DNA of 31,126 bases, taken from a virus (Duplodnaviria > Heunggongvirae > Uroviricota > Caudoviricetes). The DNA lies in IMG/VR virus record IMGVR_UViG_2874968258_000011; one strand, 5' to 3'. A program made the position numbers and the translations under genes. Below, one piece after another: positions 1,128-30,592 of this stretch; within the stretch, counting starts at the first letter, position 1; each line of letters opens with the position of its first letter. The notes under the pieces are model-generated. The model searched no databases and was not told the origin of the DNA. It saw only the letters and a list, made by a program, of their open reading frames with translations.

Positions 1128-1631
1128 TTATTGATAGTGTTTTATGTTCAGATAATGCCCGATGACTTTGTCATGCAGCTCCACCGATTTTGAGAACGAC
1201 AGCGACTTCCGTCCCAGCCGTGCCAGGTGCTGCCTCAGATTCAGGTTATGCCGCTCAATTCGCTGCGTATATCGCTTGCTGATTACGTGCAGCTTTCCCT
1301 TCAGGCGGGATTCATACAGCGGCCAGCCATCCGTCATCCATATCACCACGTCAAAGGGTGACAGCAGGCTCATAAGACGCCCCAGCGTCGCCATAGTGCG
1401 TTCACCGAATACGTGCGCAACAACCGTCTTCCGGAGACTGTCATACGCGTAAAACAGCCAGCGCTGGCGCGATTTAGCCCCGACATAGCCCCACTGTTCG
1501 TCCATTTCCGCGCAGACGATGACGTCACTGCCCGGCTGTATGCGCGAGGTTACCGACTGCGGCCTGAGTTTTTTAAGTGACGTAAAATCGTGTTGAGGCC
1601 AACGCCCATAATGCGTGCAGTTGCCCGGCAT
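1128..1631 (-). CDS. insB: IS1 InsB (expressed as InsAB' by -1 frameshift at A6C)
   Basis: 167-aa ORF overlapping insA; TTAAAAAACTC slippery motif. Confidence 0.9.
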
Positions 1632-12542: not shown

Positions 12543-12617
<75 letters not shown>

Positions 12618-12620
12618 ATA

Positions 12621-12696
<76 letters not shown>

Positions 12697-12698
12697 GC

Positions 12699-12775
12699 TG
12701 GCCCACCACCGAGGACTCGAACCTCGCACCGTCAACTTAGAAGGTTGATGCTCTATCCGGATGAGCTAGTGGTGG
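12699..12775 (-). tRNA. tRNA-Arg (anticodon UCU); unusual C1:G72
   Basis: Acceptor CCACCAC/GTGGTGG, anticodon loop CTTCTAA, T-arm CGAGGTTCGAGTCCTCG, CCA. Confidence 0.75.
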
Positions 12776-12776
12776 T

Positions 12777-12853
12777 TGGTGGCCCTTGCTGGACTTGAAC
12801 CAGCGACCTGGCGATTATGAGTCGCTCGCTCTGACCAACTGAGCTAAAGGGCC
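12777..12853 (-). tRNA. tRNA with CAU anticodon, ileX-like (Ile2/lysidine type; elongator Met not excluded)
   Basis: GGCCCTTTAGCTCAG…GACTCATAATCGCC…GGTTCAAGTCCAGCAAGGGCCACCA. Confidence 0.75.
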
Positions 12854-15678: not shown

Positions 15679-15834
15679 TTACTCTCTAGATTCGTAGTCT
15701 ACGAAAACAGCGACCTCCGTCTGGCCGATTCGGATTCGTACCTCGCAGAGGTCTTTCCTCGTTACCAGTGCCGTCACAATGACGGTTAAACAGATGACGA
15801 TCAGGGCGATTAACATCGCCTTTTGCTGCTTCAT
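15679..15834 (-). CDS. hok: Hok/Gef-family type I toxin (51 aa)
   Basis: MKQQKAMLIALIVICLTVIVTALVTRKDLCEVRIRIGQTEVAVFVDYESRE closely resembles Gef/HokC; AGGAG RBS; ORF-track entry 15679..15891 is an upstream extension. Confidence 0.85.
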   Translation of the reverse strand: MKQQKAMLIALIVICLTVIVTALVTRKDLCEVRIRIGQTEVAVFVDYESRE

Positions 15835-16172
15835 AGCCTGCTTCTCCTTGCCTTTCGGCACGTAAGAGGCTAACCTACATTTGTGAGACATAGATTGGGC
15901 CTCAGATTAATGTTAAGCGTCTTGCAGGACGCGTAATGTTAACTGGGGCTTTTCTCTGTCTGCCTTACAGTGACATACCCGAGGCAGACAGCCTCAAGCA
16001 CCCGCAGCAATCTTACCGACACCGATAAGAAAACGCTATTTTTTATTGCCAGCACCATCTATCCAGGCTAGTTTATCTGCGTCAGAACGGCGCAATGCGC
16101 TCGCCTGAGATACGTTTACTTGCCATGGTAACAACAGGTAACGGCAATTGCTGTTTCTGTTTTGTTTCCTTC

Positions 16173-25662: not shown

Positions 25663-26815
25663 AATAGCTGCGCGGAATAGTAGATCACTTTGAGGGAACT
25701 TAGCCCGGATTGTGCGATCTGATCAATCGCCAAATCAAAACAAATCACCAACCGGACTGAGCAATGCCGATCATAGCACCAATTTCCCGTGACGAACGAC
25801 GCCTGATGCAGAAAGCCATCCATAAAACACACGATAAAAATTATGCCCGCAGACTGACTGCCATGCTGATGCTGCACCGGGGCGACCGTGTCAGCGACGT
25901 TGCCAGAACGCTCTGCTGCGCCCGTTCCTCTGTTGGACGCTGGATTAACTGGTTCACGCAGTCGGGTGTTGAGGGACTGAAATCATTACCTGCCGGGCGT
26001 GCCCGTCGCTGGCCGTTTGAGCATATCTGCACACTGTTACGTGAGCTGGTAAAACATTCTCCCGGCGACTTTGGCTACCAGCGTTCACGCTGGAGTACAG
26101 AACTGCTGGCAATAAAAATCAATGAGATAACCGGTTGCCAGTTAAATGCCGGAACCGTTCGCCGCTGGTTGCCGTCTGCGGGGATTGTGTGGCGAAGGGC
26201 TGCGCCAACTCTGCGTATCCGTGACCCGCATAAAGATGAAAAGATGGCAGCAATCCATAAAGCACTGGACGAATGCAGCGCAGAGCATCCGGTCTTTTAT
26301 GAAGATGAAGTGGATATCCATCTTAATCCCAAAATCGGTGCGGACTGGCAACTGCGCGGACAGCAAAAACGGGTGGTCACGCCGGGACAGAATGAAAAAT
26401 ATTATCTGGCCGGAGCGCTGCACAGCGGGACAGGTAAAGTCAGCTGTGTGGGCGGCAACAGCAAAAGTTCGGCGCTGTTCATCAGCCTGCTGAAGCGGCT
26501 TAAAGCGACATACCGTCGGGCGAAAACCATCACGCTGATCGTGGACAACTACATTATCCACAAAAGCCGGGAAACACAGAGCTGGCTGAAGGAGAACCCG
26601 AAGTTCAGGGTCATTTATCAGCCGGTTTACTCGCCATGGGTGAATCATGTTGAACGGCTATGGCAGGCACTTCACGACACAATAACGCGTAATCATCAGT
26701 GCAGCTCAATGTGGCAACTGTTGAAAAAAGTTCGCCATTTTATGGAAACCGTCAGCCCATTCCCCGGAGGCAAACATGGGCTGGCAAAAGTGTAGCGGTA
26801 TTAAGCGCAGCTATT
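25663..26815 (+). mobile_element. IS630, 1153 bp, TA target duplication
   Basis: Inverted ends AATAGCTGCGC…/…GCGCAGCTATT; TA at 25661-25662 and 26816-26817; 343-aa transposase. Confidence 0.85.
25764..26795 (+). CDS. IS630-family transposase
   Basis: 343-aa ORF with N-terminal HTH and DDE-type C-terminal region. Confidence 0.85.
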   Translation: MPIIAPISRDERRLMQKAIHKTHDKNYARRLTAMLMLHRGDRVSDVARTLCCARSSVGRWINWFTQSGVEGLKSLPAGRARRWPFEHICTLLRELVKHSPGDFGYQRSRWSTELLAIKINEITGCQLNAGTVRRWLPSAGIVWRRAAPTLRIRDPHKDEKMAAIHKALDECSAEHPVFYEDEVDIHLNPKIGADWQLRGQQKRVVTPGQNEKYYLAGALHSGTGKVSCVGGNSKSSALFISLLKRLKATYRRAKTITLIVDNYIIHKSRETQSWLKENPKFRVIYQPVYSPWVNHVERLWQALHDTITRNHQCSSMWQLLKKVRHFMETVSPFPGGKHGLAKV

Positions 26816-26955: not shown

Positions 26956-27246
26956 TCACCGGGTCTTGGCGGGGTATAAATACCATGCGCATTGACTGAA
27001 TTCGCAAACAAAAACAGACGCGCGATACCTGGATAGTCGGTCTGCATAGTCAGATATCTGGCTGCGAATTTGATAAATATCACCGCCCTTTTCGGAAACA
27101 TAAGTTCCGTCCGGGAGTTGATTATACGAACCATCTCCATGGGGGATCGTTCTCCTGAATCCTAGTGAGAGCATATATTTATGAAGCCCTTCGTAATCCT
27201 CTGGCTCAGCATTATATAGTTCTACTCTGGCGAGATACGTTGGCAT
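26956..27246 (-). CDS. Hypothetical protein (96 aa), convergent with and overlapping the 3' end of the IS630-split gene
   Basis: ORF 26956..27252; second ATG has properly spaced AGGA RBS. Confidence 0.4.
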   Translation of the reverse strand: MPTYLARVELYNAEPEDYEGLHKYMLSLGFRRTIPHGDGSYNQLPDGTYVSEKGGDIYQIRSQISDYADRLSRYRASVFVCEFSQCAWYLYPAKTR

Positions 27247-27482
27247 ATTCATTTCCTTACTGGTTGTGTGAGAACTTCAGTAAAGATACCACCAAAGCCC
27301 GGAGGTGGTGAAATAAAACCGGGCACAACACGAAGGCGCATTTCCGGTATCCATAAAGAGTCGGTCTTGTCTGTTAAATTTAAATGGTGGGAGTGCGCCT
27401 CCGGTTGTAAATAACGACATTGCTGTGTGAAGTACCAGTTGGCGGCATCGGTTTAATTGCTGGCTGATGTCCGCCCTTTTTA

Positions 27483-27625
27483 AAGTGAATTTTGTGATGC
27501 GGTGAATGCGGCTCAGCGCACGCGGAACAGTTAAAACAGTAAGGAAAATCCCTTATTCCGGCGTTAATTGTTAACTGGTTAACGTCACCTGGAGGCACCA
27601 GGCACCGCATCAACAAAGTTCACTT
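27483..27625. repeat. Imperfect inverted repeat pair (22/23 nt arms at 27483-27504 and 27603-27625, about 98 bp apart) upstream of Rha-like gene
   Basis: AAGTGAATTTTGTGATGCGGTG versus reverse complement AAGTGAACTTTGTTGATGCGGTG. Confidence 0.6.
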
Positions 27626-27647
27626 CGGTGATGAAAGGAAAGAGAAA

Positions 27648-28493
27648 ATGTTGAATGTAGCTATTGAAAACCAGAACGGGTGGAATTATAGTGCACCTGC
27701 ACCTCATAAAACGGGTGCCGGGATTGCTACCCCGAAGTCATTCACGGCGCATAACCGCGCTCAGGCGGTTTTTTTATGCGTAATGCACAGCCACATTCAA
27801 ATTATGGTGGGGCGTGCGGGGCAGTCGCAAGACTGGCCGGGTTCCGTGATGACCGGTTGTAGCAACCCTGTACGTCTCACCACCCATGAGATTGCTACCT
27901 CCGGTGGTGAGTTAATCAAATTCATCGCGGAGGCTGCCATCATGGCTACTACCCTTTCTCACCCTTGTGTAACCGTAGAAAACGGTCGCGCTGTCACTAC
28001 GTCTGTTGCGGTTGCAGAGTTCTTCCACAAACGACACGACAATGTGTTACGTGCCATCGCAAATATTGAATGCTCAGATAAATTTACTGCCCTCAATTTT
28101 GAAGCGAGCGAATACACCGACTCAATCGGGCGCAAACTCCCAATGTACCAAATCACCAAAAACGGCTTCGTTTTCCTGGTTATGGGCTTCACTGGCAAAA
28201 AAGCCGCTGCATTCAAAGAAGCCTACATTGCTGAGTTCGACCGCATGGAGGCCGAACTGCGCCAGAATAACACCCCACCTGCTGACAAGATGATTCCGGG
28301 TGATGGTCGCACTCTGGTTGTTCACTTCGACAAATTCGGCAATGTCGAATTCACCGAAACCGTTCCTGATGGCGCACTGGTCTGTACCCTGGAGACTTTC
28401 CGGTTTTATCTGGAAAAACAGGGATGGACTCTTGTTAACCGGGGCGCAATTAAAAATATGACTGTGGAACAATTACTCAAAATTCATTGTTGA
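27648..28493 (+). CDS. Rha-family phage regulatory protein / antirepressor-like; alternative internal start at 27942
   Basis: Rha-like segment VTVENGRAVTTSVAVAEFFHKRHDNVLRAI begins near residue 105; both 27648 and 27942 ATGs have RBS. Confidence 0.5.
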   Translation: MLNVAIENQNGWNYSAPAPHKTGAGIATPKSFTAHNRAQAVFLCVMHSHIQIMVGRAGQSQDWPGSVMTGCSNPVRLTTHEIATSGGELIKFIAEAAIMATTLSHPCVTVENGRAVTTSVAVAEFFHKRHDNVLRAIANIECSDKFTALNFEASEYTDSIGRKLPMYQITKNGFVFLVMGFTGKKAAAFKEAYIAEFDRMEAELRQNNTPPADKMIPGDGRTLVVHFDKFGNVEFTETVPDGALVCTLETFRFYLEKQGWTLVNRGAIKNMTVEQLLKIHC

Positions 28494-28503
28494 GGACGCA
28501 ATA

Positions 28504-28692
28504 ATGGAGACGTTATTACCAAACGTTAATACGTCTGAAGGTTGTTTTGAAATTGGTGTCACTATCAGTAACCCTGTATTTACTGAAGATGCCATTAACA
28601 AGAGAAAACACGAACGGGAGCTATTAAATAAAATATGCATTGTTTCAATGCTGGCTCGTTTACGTCTGATGCCAAAAGGATGTGCACAATGA
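28504..28692 (+). CDS. Hypothetical small protein (62 aa)
   Basis: GAGGA RBS; stop overlaps next start (ATGA). Confidence 0.4.
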   Translation: METLLPNVNTSEGCFEIGVTISNPVFTEDAINKRKHERELLNKICIVSMLARLRLMPKGCAQ

Positions 28693-29435: not shown

Positions 29436-29738
29436 ATGAGCAGAAAAACCCAACGTTACTCTAAAGAGTTCAAAGCCGAAGCTGTCAGAACGGTTCCTGA
29501 AAATCAACTTTCGATCAGTGAAGGCGCTTCCCGATTATCTCTTCCTGAAGGCACTTTAGGACAATGGGTTACCGCCGCCAGAAAAGGGCTCGGTACTCCT
29601 GGTTCCCGCACGGTGGCTGAACTGGAATCTGAAATTCTGCAACTGCGTAAGGCGTTAAATGAAGCTCGCCTTGAGCGAGATATATTAAAAAAAGCAACAG
29701 CGTATTTTGCACAGGAGTCGCTGAAAAATACGCGTTAA
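29436..29738 (+). CDS. IS600 OrfA (P variant)
   Basis: 100-aa ORF. Confidence 0.9.
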   Translation: MSRKTQRYSKEFKAEAVRTVPENQLSISEGASRLSLPEGTLGQWVTAARKGLGTPGSRTVAELESEILQLRKALNEARLERDILKKATAYFAQESLKNTR

Positions 29739-29773
29739 TCGAACAATGGCGACAACAATTTCCCATTGAAGCG

Positions 29774-30592
29774 ATGTGTCAGGTATTTGGTGTATCCAGG
29801 AGCGGTTATTACAACTGGGTACAGCATGAACCCTCAGACAGAAAACAAAGTGATGAGCGGCTAAAACTGGAGATTAAGGTGGCACATATCCGCACTCGCG
29901 AAACATATGGAACCCGGCGGCTCCAGACGGAGCTGGCAGAGAATGGCATCATCGTTGGTCGTGACCGACTGGCACGTCTTCGTAAGGAGCTAAGGCTACG
30001 CTGTAAGCAGAAACGCAAGTTCAGAGCGACTACGAACTCGAACCACAATCTGCCAGTTGCGCCAAATCTGCTGAACCAGACGTTCACTCCTACAGCACCA
30101 AATCAGGTCTGGGTGGCGGACCTGACGTATGTTGCCACACAGGAGGGATGGTTGTACCTCGCTGGCATCAAAGATGTTTATACGTGCGAAATTGTCGGCT
30201 ACGCCATGGGAGAGCGCATGACAAAAGAGCTGACAGGTAAAGCCCTGTTTATGGCGCTCAGGAGCCAGCGCCCACCTGCCGGGCTAATCCACCACTCTGA
30301 TCGAGGTTCACAGTACTGCGCATACGATTACCGGGTCATACAGGAGCAGTCTGGTCTGAAAACATCAATGTCGCGTAAAGGTAACTGTTACGACAACGCT
30401 CCGATGGAAAGCTTCTGGGGAACGCTGAAAAATGAGAGCCTGAGCCACTATCGTTTTAATAACCGGGATGAAGCCATCTCAGTAATACGGGAATACATTG
30501 AGATTTTCTACAATCGTCAGCGTCGTCACTCTCGTCTGGGGAATATCTCCCCGGCAGCCTTCAGGGAAAAATATCATCAGATGGCTGCTTAA
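29774..30592 (+). CDS. IS600 OrfB
   Basis: 272-aa ORF. Confidence 0.9.
   Translation: MCQVFGVSRSGYYNWVQHEPSDRKQSDERLKLEIKVAHIRTRETYGTRRLQTELAENGIIVGRDRLARLRKELRLRCKQKRKFRATTNSNHNLPVAPNLLNQTFTPTAPNQVWVADLTYVATQEGWLYLAGIKDVYTCEIVGYAMGERMTKELTGKALFMALRSQRPPAGLIHHSDRGSQYCAYDYRVIQEQSGLKTSMSRKGNCYDNAPMESFWGTLKNESLSHYRFNNRDEAISVIREYIEIFYNRQRRHSRLGNISPAAFREKYHQMAA

Follow-up and report, generated by a model that had tools for sequence, protein, structure and literature searches.

Helices cut by RNase III are known between the early cistrons of phages, as in the T7 R1.1-type sites and the lambda N leader, and as the stems that flank rRNAs. A site of this kind has also been reported in the dicBF operon of the Escherichia coli K-12 prophage Qin, where, according to later summaries of Faubladier 1990 (PMC5069750, PMC9438474), RNase III acts on the full-length dicBF mRNA to yield a 72-nt DicF that extends 19 nt beyond the 53-nt terminated form. 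A further account of this operon (PMC10448788) places the emphasis on an RNase III site upstream of dicF, and the downstream site is not discussed. In the prophage Rac the sRNA related to DicF is KilS, whose existence in K-12 was confirmed by northern blotting (Bar et al. 2021, PMC8175672) and whose only reported RIL-seq partner, established for the K-12 form rather than the variant described below, is yncL.

The DNA analysed here, referred to as the window, is a stretch of 31,126 nt from a virus of the Caudoviricetes. A previous sequence-only reading of positions 27247–27647 described about 400 bp with no convincing ORF and an inverted repeat upstream of a Rha-like gene, and offered a paired operator, a structured leader or sRNA, or the ends of a miniature inverted-repeat element as explanations. 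We conclude, with a probability of roughly 0.7, that this stretch is a non-coding RNA segment, read on the + strand, of a Qin/Rac-type early-left ('dicBF-type') prophage operon, and that an sRNA followed by a structured element cleaved by RNase III explains it as a whole. The structured leader or sRNA was the right option among those offered, as an sRNA gene of the KilS/DicF type lies in the stretch together with a conserved structured RNA, for which the repeat serves as the closing helix. The features of the locus are collected in Table 1.

Table 1. Positions of the genes, RNA features and helices discussed in the text, numbered from the first letter of the window.
Feature	Position	Strand	Basis
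Left boundary gene, 98 aa	26956–27252	-	phrog_8894, E 3.8e-38, 93/94 profile positions
Hairpin A (GCCCGG...CCGGGC), predicted	27297–27324	+	single-sequence fold and consensus fold of 4 sequences
Helix B, long and imperfect, ~21 bp (27325–27346 with 27388–27408)	27325–27408	+	single-sequence fold and 4-sequence consensus fold
KilS-like sRNA gene, orthologue of E. coli K-12 Rac kilS (b4833)	27387–27481	+	alignment to K-12 kilS annotation
STnc100-like structured RNA element, ~143 nt	27483–27625	+	K-12 spacer homology, Rfam STnc100, covariation
P1, extended closing helix (the inverted repeat)	27483–27504 with 27603–27625	+	
Linker AAU	27505–27507	+	
P2	27508–27523	+	
P3, putative pseudoknot	27528–27534 with 27571–27577	+	inferred
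Variable hairpin	27540–27555	+	
P4	27560–27567 with 27579–27586	+	
P5	27588–27602	+	
Sigma-70 promoter of the isrK-C4-antirepressor module (TTGAAA, 17 nt, TATAGT)	27664–27692	+	10/12 consensus positions
IsrK-type sRNA with its own terminator	27699–27775	+	Rfam RF01394, 64.8 bits (gathering score 50)
C4-type antisense RNA (STnc1160 equivalent)	27800–27887	+	Rfam RF01695, 79 bits (gathering score 45)
Rha-family antirepressor (AnrP-like), from the ATG after GGAGG	27942–28493	+	Pfam Phage_pRha, aa 117–201 of the 281-aa ORF; phrog_995, phrog_518
dicB	28504–28692	+	Pfam DicB, E 3.8e-40, full length; same gene order annotated in E. coli RMDEC465

Operon context and the KilS/DicF-like sRNA

Genes in the window that follow the Qin order are a dicA-like HTH repressor, ydfA (DUF1391), DicB and DUF1482, and the operon as a whole runs from the dicA-like repressor through ydfA and an IS630 insertion to Rha and dicB; E. 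coli RMDEC465 carries ydfABC, an identical hairpin, Rha and dicB in that order. In Qin-type prophages dicB is the cistron directly after the hairpin. The left boundary of the stretch is formed by a genuine phage gene of a family of unknown function, which is transcribed away from it and has no Pfam match. The rac10 gene, which occupies the same position in Rac-SA53, was considered as a homologue of this gene and shows no similarity to it. None of the ORFs inside 27253–27647 has a Pfam match, in agreement with the description of the stretch as lacking a convincing ORF.

The spacer upstream of kilR in Rac-SA53 is 85% identical to window positions 27250–27625, whilst 27439–27622 matches dicF and the dicF-dicB spacer of K-12 Qin at ~82%, and 27483–27625 is homologous to both the dicF-dicB and the kilS-kilR spacers of K-12. 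Similar sequence is present in 4,641 of 5,426 complete E. coli genomes, with one to nine copies per genome, and the element family is found across the Enterobacterales. Failure of the arms to recur in related prophages had been named as a finding that would speak against the repeat, and this widespread recurrence is the opposite outcome.

The region upstream of the repeat contains a putative Hfq-type sRNA gene of the KilS/DicF family that ends at an intrinsic terminator, as judged from sequence comparison. It aligns with K-12 kilS over the full length, with approximately the first 45 nt and the terminator stem identical and the loop different, and an intrinsic-terminator-like site is formed by a stem within ~27441–27475 and a U-run at 27477–27481. 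The DicF-like 3' half (27426–27476) matches the full length of the Rfam DicF model (RF00039) with 28.6 bits (E 4.5e-4), below the gathering score of 48, where K-12 dicF, used as a control in the same covariance-model test, reaches 76.7 bits. Features of the DicF/KilS group that are found here are orthology to a verified member, a terminator, and a location in a dicBF-type operon upstream of a cell-division inhibitor gene. The resemblance to Rac extends to the region upstream of KilS and to the hairpin downstream of it, both of which are shared with the window; the window differs in that its terminator loop is 7 nt shorter, 4 nt are inserted before the stem, and the gene downstream is not kilR.

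The complementarity that had been noted further upstream is present, with CCGGAGGTGG at 27299–27308 and CCTCCGG at 27398–27404. The former is included in hairpin A, at whose position related loci have GCCTG...CAGGC. Helix B encloses the 5' end of KilS, and the fold of 27285–27482 has a z-score of -3.4. In read-through transcripts, helix B may act as a further RNase III site, upstream of the sRNA. For K-12 Rac position 1418510, which corresponds approximately to window 27379 in the loop of helix B, Table S1 of Gordon 2017 gives 0 and 0 reads in the wild type and 41 in the rnc deletion, a low count. The predicted folds favour the helix B partner of CCTCCGG over CCGGAGG. In a Shigella flexneri copy the two segments read CCGGAAG and CTTCCGG, a double change, among few sequences compared, that preserves the CCGGAGG/CCTCCGG pairing.

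The inverted repeat and its STnc100-like core

The two arms of the repeat, AAGTGAATTTTGTGATGCGGTG (27483–27504) and CACCGCATCAACAAAGTTCACTT (27603–27625), are 22 and 23 nt long and 98 nt apart, with the distal arm ending 22 nt before the ATG at 27648, exactly as had been described; the GTTAAC-TG-GTTAAC tandem reported with them is likewise present (27570–27583). The arms pair over 22 bp, including one U·G wobble (27490/27618) and one bulged A (27612). An arm search with 100 shuffles places the inverted repeat far above chance expectation, and a second copy of the arm was found neither in the window, at up to three mismatches, nor in the 100 shuffles. RNA folding, which had been proposed as a check, gives -65.1 kcal/mol for the + strand of 27470–27660 (z = -5.2), and 0 of 200 shuffles are equally stable. 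The inverted repeat is a real feature, but a largely ordinary one. In the K-12 Qin dicBF spacer the arms are nearly identical to those in the window, the stem has the same length, it lies directly after an sRNA terminator, and dicB is located downstream in the operon. In contrast to Qin, the sRNA in the window is KilS-like rather than canonical DicF, the variable internal hairpin is shorter, and a 0.87-kb isrK-C4-Rha module lies between the hairpin and dicB.

The core inside the stem is a divergent branch of STnc100, with P1, P2, P4 and P5 common to both and all showing covariation. The Rfam STnc100 model (RF02076) matches at positions 22–154 of 206 with 33.7 bits (E 1.6e-5), which does not reach the gathering score of 47, and the K-12 Qin and Rac copies likewise have no STnc100 match at the gathering threshold. 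Since the locus falls below the gathering thresholds of both STnc100 and DicF, the family placement is based on the structural comparison made here and on one bridging member, a close relative with the same long stem (L018) that passes the STnc100 threshold at 47.8 bits.

The STnc100 motifs are all located at 27501–27606. As in STnc100 and PasD of the EPEC and EHEC prophages, the window copy has the GGUGAAU 5' strand (P1 GGUG/CACC followed by the AAU linker), a P2 hairpin whose loop is YNNGC and which carries a one-nt bulge, the P4 hairpin, and a CCNGG-AGGCA-CCNGG P5 hairpin that stacks on CACCRC, and it too resides in a prophage. It differs from them in having the GCGGC/GCACGC variant of P2 and a P1 lengthened to 22 bp, whilst the flanks that correspond to model positions 1–21 and 155–206 are missing. 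Typical STnc100 copies lie in the late region among tRNA genes or downstream of stx and have a P1 of ~9 bp, whereas the window copy lies in the early-left operon after an sRNA; the long P1 of 19–22 bp is specific to copies preceded by an sRNA or promoter region and followed by an ORF.

Selection on the RNA structure is seen at two levels. Among the 17 elements of the subfamily, which come from at least eight genera, 81.8% of cells are paired, compared with 72% in shuffles and 34–41% when the partners are slid, and there are 73 double-change cells compared with 32 in shuffles, with 0 of 500 shuffles matching the observed value. In P1 the changes occur on both sides in 12 of the 22 pairs. In the wider family of 117 non-identical copies, all 117 have a Watson-Crick combination at the free N/N pair of P5, the P1 pair beside GGUG is U-A in 69, C-G in 37 and U·G in 7, and P2 alternates between CCCCC/GG(N)GGG and GCGGC/GC(A)CGC. 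The wobbles in P1 (27490/27618 in the window and two more in K-12 Qin) are G·U on the + strand and would be A·C mismatches on the - strand, and for this reason the element is read as a + strand RNA. The segment after P2 probably pairs with the loop of P4 to form a pseudoknot (P3), which is absent from the Rfam consensus structure line in the cmscan output. The idea of a tRNA-like or RNase P substrate, a speculation from the four-way junction and the stacking of P5 on P1, was set aside, as the element has no T-loop or CCA-like feature.

The isrK-C4-Rha module and the start of the Rha reading frame

The sequence-only reading placed the start of the Rha-like gene at the ATG at 27648. This is indeed the first in-frame ATG of the 281-aa ORF, but it is not its probable start, as the ORF contains two RNAs that exceed their Rfam gathering scores. 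The ATG at 27648 is also upstream of the conserved promoter of the isrK module, which corresponds to PisrK of Gifsy-1 (PMC4825925) and whose TTGA...TA-A-T hexamers are aligned in seven phage or prophage copies. Downstream, an orf45-like reading frame from 27804 overlaps the C4 RNA, and a GGAGG at 27929–27933 is located 8 nt before the ATG at 27942, with the Rha frame open as far back as 27648. A translation start at 27804 or 27942 is more likely than one at 27648. Because the IsrK and C4 RNAs lie inside the 281-aa ORF, the stretch without firm coding runs on to ~27803 or 27941.

The C4 RNA carries GUAGCAACCC at 27859–27868, which is complementary to GGAUUGCUAC at 27721–27730; a direct repeat of this target, GATTGCTACC, is located at 27890–27899, and the C4 segment and both copies of its target covary across phages. 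The module as a whole (27664–28493) resembles isrK-orf45-anrP of Gifsy-1 and c4-icd-ant of P1 and P7 in that a promoter is followed by IsrK and its terminator, by a C4-like RNA under a short ORF and then by an antirepressor. It differs from them in that the orf45-like frame enters the antirepressor frame without a stop codon, and in being embedded in a dicBF-type operon. The module looks inserted between the hairpin and dicB. The description of the repeat as upstream of the Rha-like gene is correct as to position only: the element is part of the dicBF-type operon, and the Rha module has its own promoter.

Proposed RNase III processing, rival readings and significance

The homology, the conserved fold, the covariation and the operon context come from the present analysis, and RNase III cleavage at the K-12 site comes from the literature. 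The characteristics of an RNase III site found in the window are a near-uninterrupted helix of at least ~20 bp (here 22 bp) and positional and sequence homology to the K-12 site of the 72-nt DicF. The cut position was computed from the two later summaries and the dicF end annotated in RefSeq; the point 19 nt beyond the annotated K-12 dicF end lies inside the 5' arm of P1, and the equivalent cut of the window copy would fall between 27495 and 27496. If the 53-nt DicF includes terminator U residues, the cut shifts by a few nt and is still inside the arm. At position 1649470, inside the K-12 element, Table S1 of Gordon 2017 has 0 and 0 reads in the wild type and 26 in the rnc deletion; the position is flagged as a known site, with very low counts in a long and noisy table.

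In the proposed sequence of events, polymerases that pass the KilS-like terminator would transcribe the element at 27483–27625, and its long P1 helix, perfect to wobble in its pairing, would act as an RNase III substrate, as reported for the homologous helix downstream of K-12 dicF. A cut ~13 nt into the 5' arm, together with a staggered cut in the 3' arm, would give the upstream sRNA an alternative 3' end that is 19 nt longer, would free the downstream message (isrK-C4-Rha-dicB in the window, dicB or kilR in relatives), and would release a core RNA of ~116 nt, in which the 9 bp left of P1 form the closing stem and which has the architecture of STnc100. We infer that the window copy is cleaved, that its core accumulates and that cleavage affects downstream expression. 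The arrangement resembles that of the T7 R1.1-type sites, the lambda N leader and the rRNA stems in that a helix of at least 20 bp flanks a functional RNA or lies between cistrons and its cleavage splits a polycistronic transcript; it differs in that what the helix encloses is neither a simple loop nor an rRNA but a conserved core of several helices, and in that cleavage in the window is a prediction. The element in the window may be partly vestigial, because its usual cistron, dicB or kilR, is displaced by a module with its own promoter.

Two other RNA functions have to be weighed against this reading. The core could mainly be a trans-acting, Hfq-associated sRNA of the STnc100/PasD type, with distant mRNAs as targets and the long stem only as an excision signal. 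Its STnc100 architecture and the bridging relative with the same long stem, which scores above the Rfam threshold, are in line with this, as are PasD, described as STnc100-related and an abundant Hfq-bound sRNA in EPEC RIL-seq (bioRxiv 10.64898/2026.05.13.724894), and the detection of STnc100 RNA in STEC vesicles (PMC12370729). However, the window copy lacks a promoter-like site directly before it, its 3' arm is not followed by a U-tract terminator, it scores below the STnc100 gathering threshold, and the subfamily has no known target or seed, and we regard this as unlikely, if a serious candidate. Such an sRNA is compatible with excision by RNase III, and the difference lies in the role of the payload. 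Alternatively, the element could be a leader acting in cis, which independently of RNase III would govern how stable the following cistron is or how well it is translated, whether as a 5' stabiliser, a sensor, or an insulator that separates the sRNA terminator from the next ribosome-binding site. In the Lelliottia, Pseudescherichia, Scandinavium, Buttiauxella, E. ruysiae and E. coli Qin-type loci, 10–30 nt separate the end of the 3' arm from the Shine-Dalgarno sequence and start codon of a small ORF, and the pseudoknotted conserved core is more elaborate than a cleavage site requires. Yet the next functional unit in the window has its own promoter, typical family members lie in tandem arrays between tRNA genes with no downstream ORF, and no ligand or protein partner is known, which leaves a cis-acting leader rather improbable.

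The readings at the level of DNA or protein fare far worse. Two near-identical 22-nt inverted sequences close to a promoter could in principle be an operator pair for the prophage repressor or Rha that loops the DNA upstream of the Rha gene, but the arms lie downstream of an intrinsic terminator within a transcribed unit, the mismatches they tolerate are G·U on the + strand only, and the 98 nt between them are also conserved and structured. The proposal of a paired operator fails above all because the arms change between genera whilst remaining mutually complementary, as in Lelliottia (AGCAGGTTTTAAGGTGTGGTG/CACCACACCTTAAAGCCTGCT) and Klebsiella (CAGGCTTTGCAATACGGTG/CACCGCATTGCAAAGCCTG) and in the two-sided changes of P1 given above; we consider it very improbable. 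The same low standing applies to the ends of a miniature transposable element inserted upstream of Rha, although the ~22 bp terminal inverted repeats, the size of ~143 bp, the copy number per E. coli genome and the homology with relatives that ends exactly at the outer edge of the 3' arm (27625) would all suit one. This reading fails because no direct repeat is common to the flanking sequences, ...CTTTTTA on the outer side of the 5' arm and CGGTGAT... beyond the 3' arm, because the copies whose contexts were inspected individually (~20) all have one orientation and one place, in a prophage operon or an RNA-gene array, and because the interior covaries as an RNA under structural selection; an empty site was also not identified. 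A small protein, such as that of a 78-aa ORF (27380–27616, - strand) or a 48-aa ORF (27268–27414), is hardly credible: such ORFs exist mechanically, and one phage record annotates a hypothetical CDS over the hairpin, but neither ORF has a Pfam match, the 78-aa ORF starts with TTG, and the variation is compensatory pairing and not codon-like. An antiterminator like the put RNAs of HK022 was also considered and rejected. Those are likewise cis-acting structured RNAs in a lambdoid early operon, but they are ~70 nt long with two stems and differ in location relative to promoters (PMC9378689); a search of HK022 22–40.7 kb, covering early and late regions and made with STnc100, gave no STnc100-like match at E <=0.1.

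For specialists in prophage sRNAs nothing here is surprising. The gain for annotation is that ~690 bp left blank or merged into an over-long 'Rha family' ORF resolve into four RNA features that can be annotated: a KilS-like sRNA, an STnc100-like element with an RNase III stem, IsrK and C4. The 35-year-old RNase III site beside dicF is now tied to a widespread prophage RNA family of unknown function, and this link suggests a simple route of biogenesis, namely that RNase III cuts a read-through transcript and so frees the RNA. More tentatively, the RNase III stem after DicF or KilS may be the excision signal of a discrete ~116-nt pseudoknotted five-helix RNA, belonging to a large and mostly unannotated STnc100/PasD branch that extends from Escherichia to Pantoea, with a prophage function of its own. 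If this is so, possible roles of the excised core include binding to proteins or ribosomes, sponging, and acting as a chaperone in the processing of neighbouring sRNAs and tRNAs. As the element lies between a division-blocking sRNA and toxic or regulatory genes (dicB, kilR, the antirepressor), its processing could set the output of each upon derepression of the operon.

The inverted repeat and the STnc100 family

The features picked out by the sequence-only reading, namely two near-identical inverted arms 98 nt apart, a GTTAAC tandem and a CCGGAGG/CCTCCGG pairing, were all found as described, and the arms pair with each other over 22 bp, including one U.G wobble, plus one bulged A. A search for further copies of the arm returned none in the window and none across 100 shuffles, and folding of 27470-27660 gave z = -5.2 on the plus strand and z = -4.0 on the minus strand. 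On the left, the region adjoins a real phage gene.

In a relaxed search, the hairpin matched Rfam STnc100 at 33.7 bits (model positions 22-154), below the threshold of 47. Related copies were collected by scanning species-representative genomes for CACCNGGAGGCACCNGGCACC, which yielded at least 120 loci; almost all belong to Enterobacterales, with Kosakonia, Enterobacter, Pantoea, Erwinia, Klebsiella, Citrobacter and Salmonella among the genera. Most sampled copies are STnc100 by Rfam (50–90 bits), and the branch containing the window copy lies under the threshold, with the single exception of one copy (L018, 47.8 bits). STnc100 copies often form tandem series with tRNA and isrI genes in between; such arrays occur in Citrobacter, on a Pantoea plasmid and in Enterobacter (loci L086 3717-5512, L048 894-2010 and L075 2583-3377), and they hint at a role linked to the processing of RNA-gene clusters.

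Features of the region and of the fold common to 117 non-identical copies
Feature	Coordinates	Description
phrog_8894 gene	26956-27252 (minus strand)	left neighbour
Small hairpin	27297-27324	predicted by folding
CCGGAGGTGG	27299-27308	holds CCGGAGG
CCTCCGG	27398-27404	
Helix B	27325-27346 with 27388-27408	long, imperfect, predicted by folding; encloses KilS 5' end
TGTTAAATT	27372-27380	candidate extended -10 element
KilS-like sRNA	27387-27481	
5' arm of P1	27483-27504	AAGTGAATTTTGTGATGCGGTG
3' arm of P1	27603-27625	CACCGCATCAACAAAGTTCACTT
GTTAAC-TG-GTTAAC	27570-27583	
P1		..GYGGUG with CACCRC...; pair beside GGUG is U-A in 69, C-G in 37 and U.G in 7 (117 copies)
Linker after P1		AAU
P2		five pairs, one-nt bulge, YNNGC loop
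P3	27571-27577 with 27528-27534	5-9 nt after P2, complementary to P4 loop; sequences vary by copy
P4		hairpin directly 5' of P5
P5		CCNGG-AGGCA-CCNGG; both free N positions Watson-Crick in 117/117
Promoter TTGAAA-17 nt-TATAGT	27664-27692	near-consensus; just before isrK, downstream of ATG 27648
isrK	27699-27775	Rfam, 64.8 bits; in 5' third of 281-aa 'Rha' ORF
C4	27800-27887	Rfam, 79 bits; in 5' third of 281-aa 'Rha' ORF

In most copies P2 is CCCCC/GG(N)GGG, and in the branch of the window copy it is GCGGC/GC(A)CGC, so that several pairs have been exchanged on both sides. A P3 complementarity run of at least 6 is present in 69% of copies compared to 22% of mismatched sequence pairs, from which we infer a pseudoknot that is absent from the Rfam structure line in the cmscan output; in the window, P3 accounts for the first GTTAAC and P4 for the second. 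Across the window's branch (17 elements, at least 8 genera), 81.8% of cells are paired, compared to 72% in shuffles and 34–41% with slid partners, and double-change cells number 73 versus 32 in shuffles; none of 500 shuffles reached the observed value. The alignment of these 17 elements is not structure-aware, and the outer P1 is thus under-counted.

The proposal of a structured RNA or sRNA is retained, whereas the two DNA-level readings offered beside it are not: an operator pair is rejected because the arms covary instead of holding a fixed sequence, and a miniature inverted-repeat element because its ends show no duplicated target, its orientation and setting stay constant in the ~20 contexts inspected, and selection on RNA acts on its interior. 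ORFs within the region matched no Pfam family, which makes a small protein unlikely. An antiterminator resembling HK022 put was also considered and rejected, since HK022 itself (22-40.7 kb, E up to 0.1) is unmatched and the architecture differs.

The KilS-like sRNA and proposed RNase III processing

The segment directly upstream of the hairpin aligns end to end with the annotated sRNA KilS of the K-12 prophage Rac, which was predicted from RIL-seq and confirmed by northern blot (PMC8175672); the two agree exactly over the first ~45 nt and in the terminator stem, and differ in the loop. Its 3' half also gives a weak DicF match (28.6 bits, under the gathering score). KilS may have its own start site, and TGTTAAATT, picked by eye, could be an extended -10 element. 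Helix B parallels the region upstream of dicF, where an RNase III site gives rise to a 190-nt DicF species (PMC10448788). The CCGGAGG/CCTCCGG pairing competes with helix B, and is tentatively favoured, among four sequences compared, by one double change in Shigella flexneri locus L027 (CCGGAAG with CTTCCGG).

Further upstream, a GUGUGAGAAC...ACCACC(N)AGCC-stem-loop motif (27263-27324) recurs in the upstream flanks of loci L017, L009 and L089. In several genera it adjoins a divergent gene start, and its stem varies with pairing preserved (GCCCGG/CCGGGC versus GCCTG/CAGGC); it could form part of the minus-strand gene's promoter or leader. L009 (E. coli SCPM-O-B-8794, ~1290-1583, minus strand) has the modules in reverse order: first an STnc100-type element, then a KilS/DicF-like sRNA and terminator (CUGUGUGUAGUCUUGGCGGUACCAGC...GCUGGUACCGCUCUUUUU), then another long hairpin. 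Such RNA modules appear to have been shuffled between prophages.

P1 is typically ~9 bp in the family, and extends to 19–22 bp where the copy lies between an upstream sRNA or promoter region and a small downstream ORF. At these loci the 3' arm ends 10–30 nt upstream of a Shine-Dalgarno and start codon, and the long P1 sequences differ among Lelliottia, Pseudescherichia, Scandinavium, Buttiauxella and Klebsiella. A helix of 19–22 bp is an RNase III substrate. At the homologous site of the K-12 prophage Qin, RNase III is reported to act on the dicBF mRNA to give the 72-nt DicF, 19 nt longer than the 53-nt terminated form (Faubladier et al., as cited in PMC5069750 and PMC9438474); counted from the annotated dicF end, this cut falls after ...UUUUGU, 13–14 nt into the 5' arm, and its equivalent in the window would be 27495/27496. 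In an RNA-seq comparison with an rnc deletion (PMC5371410, Table S1), K-12 position 1649470, inside the element and flagged as known, has 0 and 0 reads in wild type versus 26 in the deletion, and position 1418510, just upstream of kilS, has 0 and 0 versus 41; given such small counts in a long table, the support is weak. A staggered cut would leave a ~116-nt RNA that the inner 9 bp of P1 close, and this RNA would have the size and shape of the typical family core.

The right boundary and the isrK-C4-Rha module

The right edge had been placed at the Rha ATG (27648), which does not hold, as Rfam isrK and C4 fall inside that ORF. The arrangement of promoter, isrK, C4 and antirepressor matches the Gifsy-1 locus, where the order is PisrK, isrK, orf45 (overlapping STnc1160, a C4-like RNA) and anrP, the transcript begins with isrK, and a short ORF from +107 is coupled to the antirepressor (PMC4825925). 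The start of that ORF corresponds to ATG 27804 in the window, in frame with the Rha domain. ATG 27648, where PGAP annotation also starts the ORF, is not a conserved start, because phages P13803 and PA2 have in-frame stop codons upstream of isrK and the promoter hexamers are kept in 7/7 aligned copies.

Pfam Phage_ASH (E 2.7e-17) covers aa 14-104 of the ORF, equivalent to the translated isrK and C4 RNA genes, and the N-terminal part of this Pfam family may be a translated RNA gene. Across 27648-27941, PGAP-style annotation turns RNA-gene DNA into a 281-aa 'Rha family' protein, with an experimental translation precedent (Gifsy-1) only for the final ~46 codons, which begin at ATG 27804, the orf45 equivalent. 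The orf45-like frame of this lineage runs without a stop from there to the antirepressor ATG 27942 (ATC ATG, 27939-27944), which is preceded by GGAGG, so that the short ORF and antirepressor are fused in frame; PA2, in contrast, retains a stop between them.

The C4 segment GUAGCAACCC (27859-27868) is complementary to the isrK segment GGAUUGCUAC (27721-27730), and the repeat GAUUGCUACC (27890-27899) sits just upstream of the antirepressor ribosome-binding site. These segments co-vary in loci L129-L133 (ST64B GUGGAA/UUCCAC, PA2 UUCUCAC/GUGAGAA, P88 UUUCCAC/GUGGAAA) and resemble what would set specificity in an antisense immunity system of the c4 type.

Mosaic origin and identity of the region

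The region is a mosaic of separately matching parts. The stretch 27250-27625 is 85% identical to the Rac-SA53 spacer upstream of kilR, 27700-27950 is matched by the isrK-C4 segment of numerous phages, Stx phages among them, and 27439-27622 has matches in many further records. Matches to 27430-27640 are present in 4,641 of 5,426 complete E. coli genomes (median 2, up to 9 places each), those in K-12 being the Qin dicF-dicB and Rac kilS-kilR spacers; the KilS-like/hairpin/isrK/C4 junction is found in 384 of the 5,426. Gene order in the window is that of Qin (DicA-like repressor, ydfA, IS630-type insertion, phrog_8894 gene, RNA block, Rha, dicB, DUF1482), and E. coli RMDEC465 has ydfABC, an identical hairpin, Rha and dicB.

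An IS630-family transposase (25764-26795) lies between ydfA and the phrog_8894 gene, where ydfB/ydfC are expected, and the DUF1482 gene is followed by an IS3-family element (29436-30592; ORFs of 100 aa and 272 aa). The RNA block may therefore have lost its coupling to the operon's own promoter. Elsewhere, the prophage carries a sok antitoxin RNA (15829-16003, minus strand, 118 bits), implying a hok/sok locus, and four clustered tRNA genes (12546-12853, minus strand). In the T4-like jumbo-phage record of Aeromonas phage AP1 (MT713136; L003), an E. coli-type dicF lies together with the hairpin and the first dicB bases (2001-2197) near a tRNA-Met gene, a finding that horizontal transfer or a chimeric assembly could explain.

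Overall, this is a genuine feature of a functional kind, and of known classes. We identify the region with high confidence as a KilS/DicF-type sRNA with the RNase III-processed spacer of dicBF-type operons, that spacer being a divergent STnc100-family element; the window copy is probably processed by RNase III as described, with moderate confidence. The proposed link of the dicF-side RNase III stem to the STnc100 family may be new, as may the putative pseudoknot in the STnc100-like fold.
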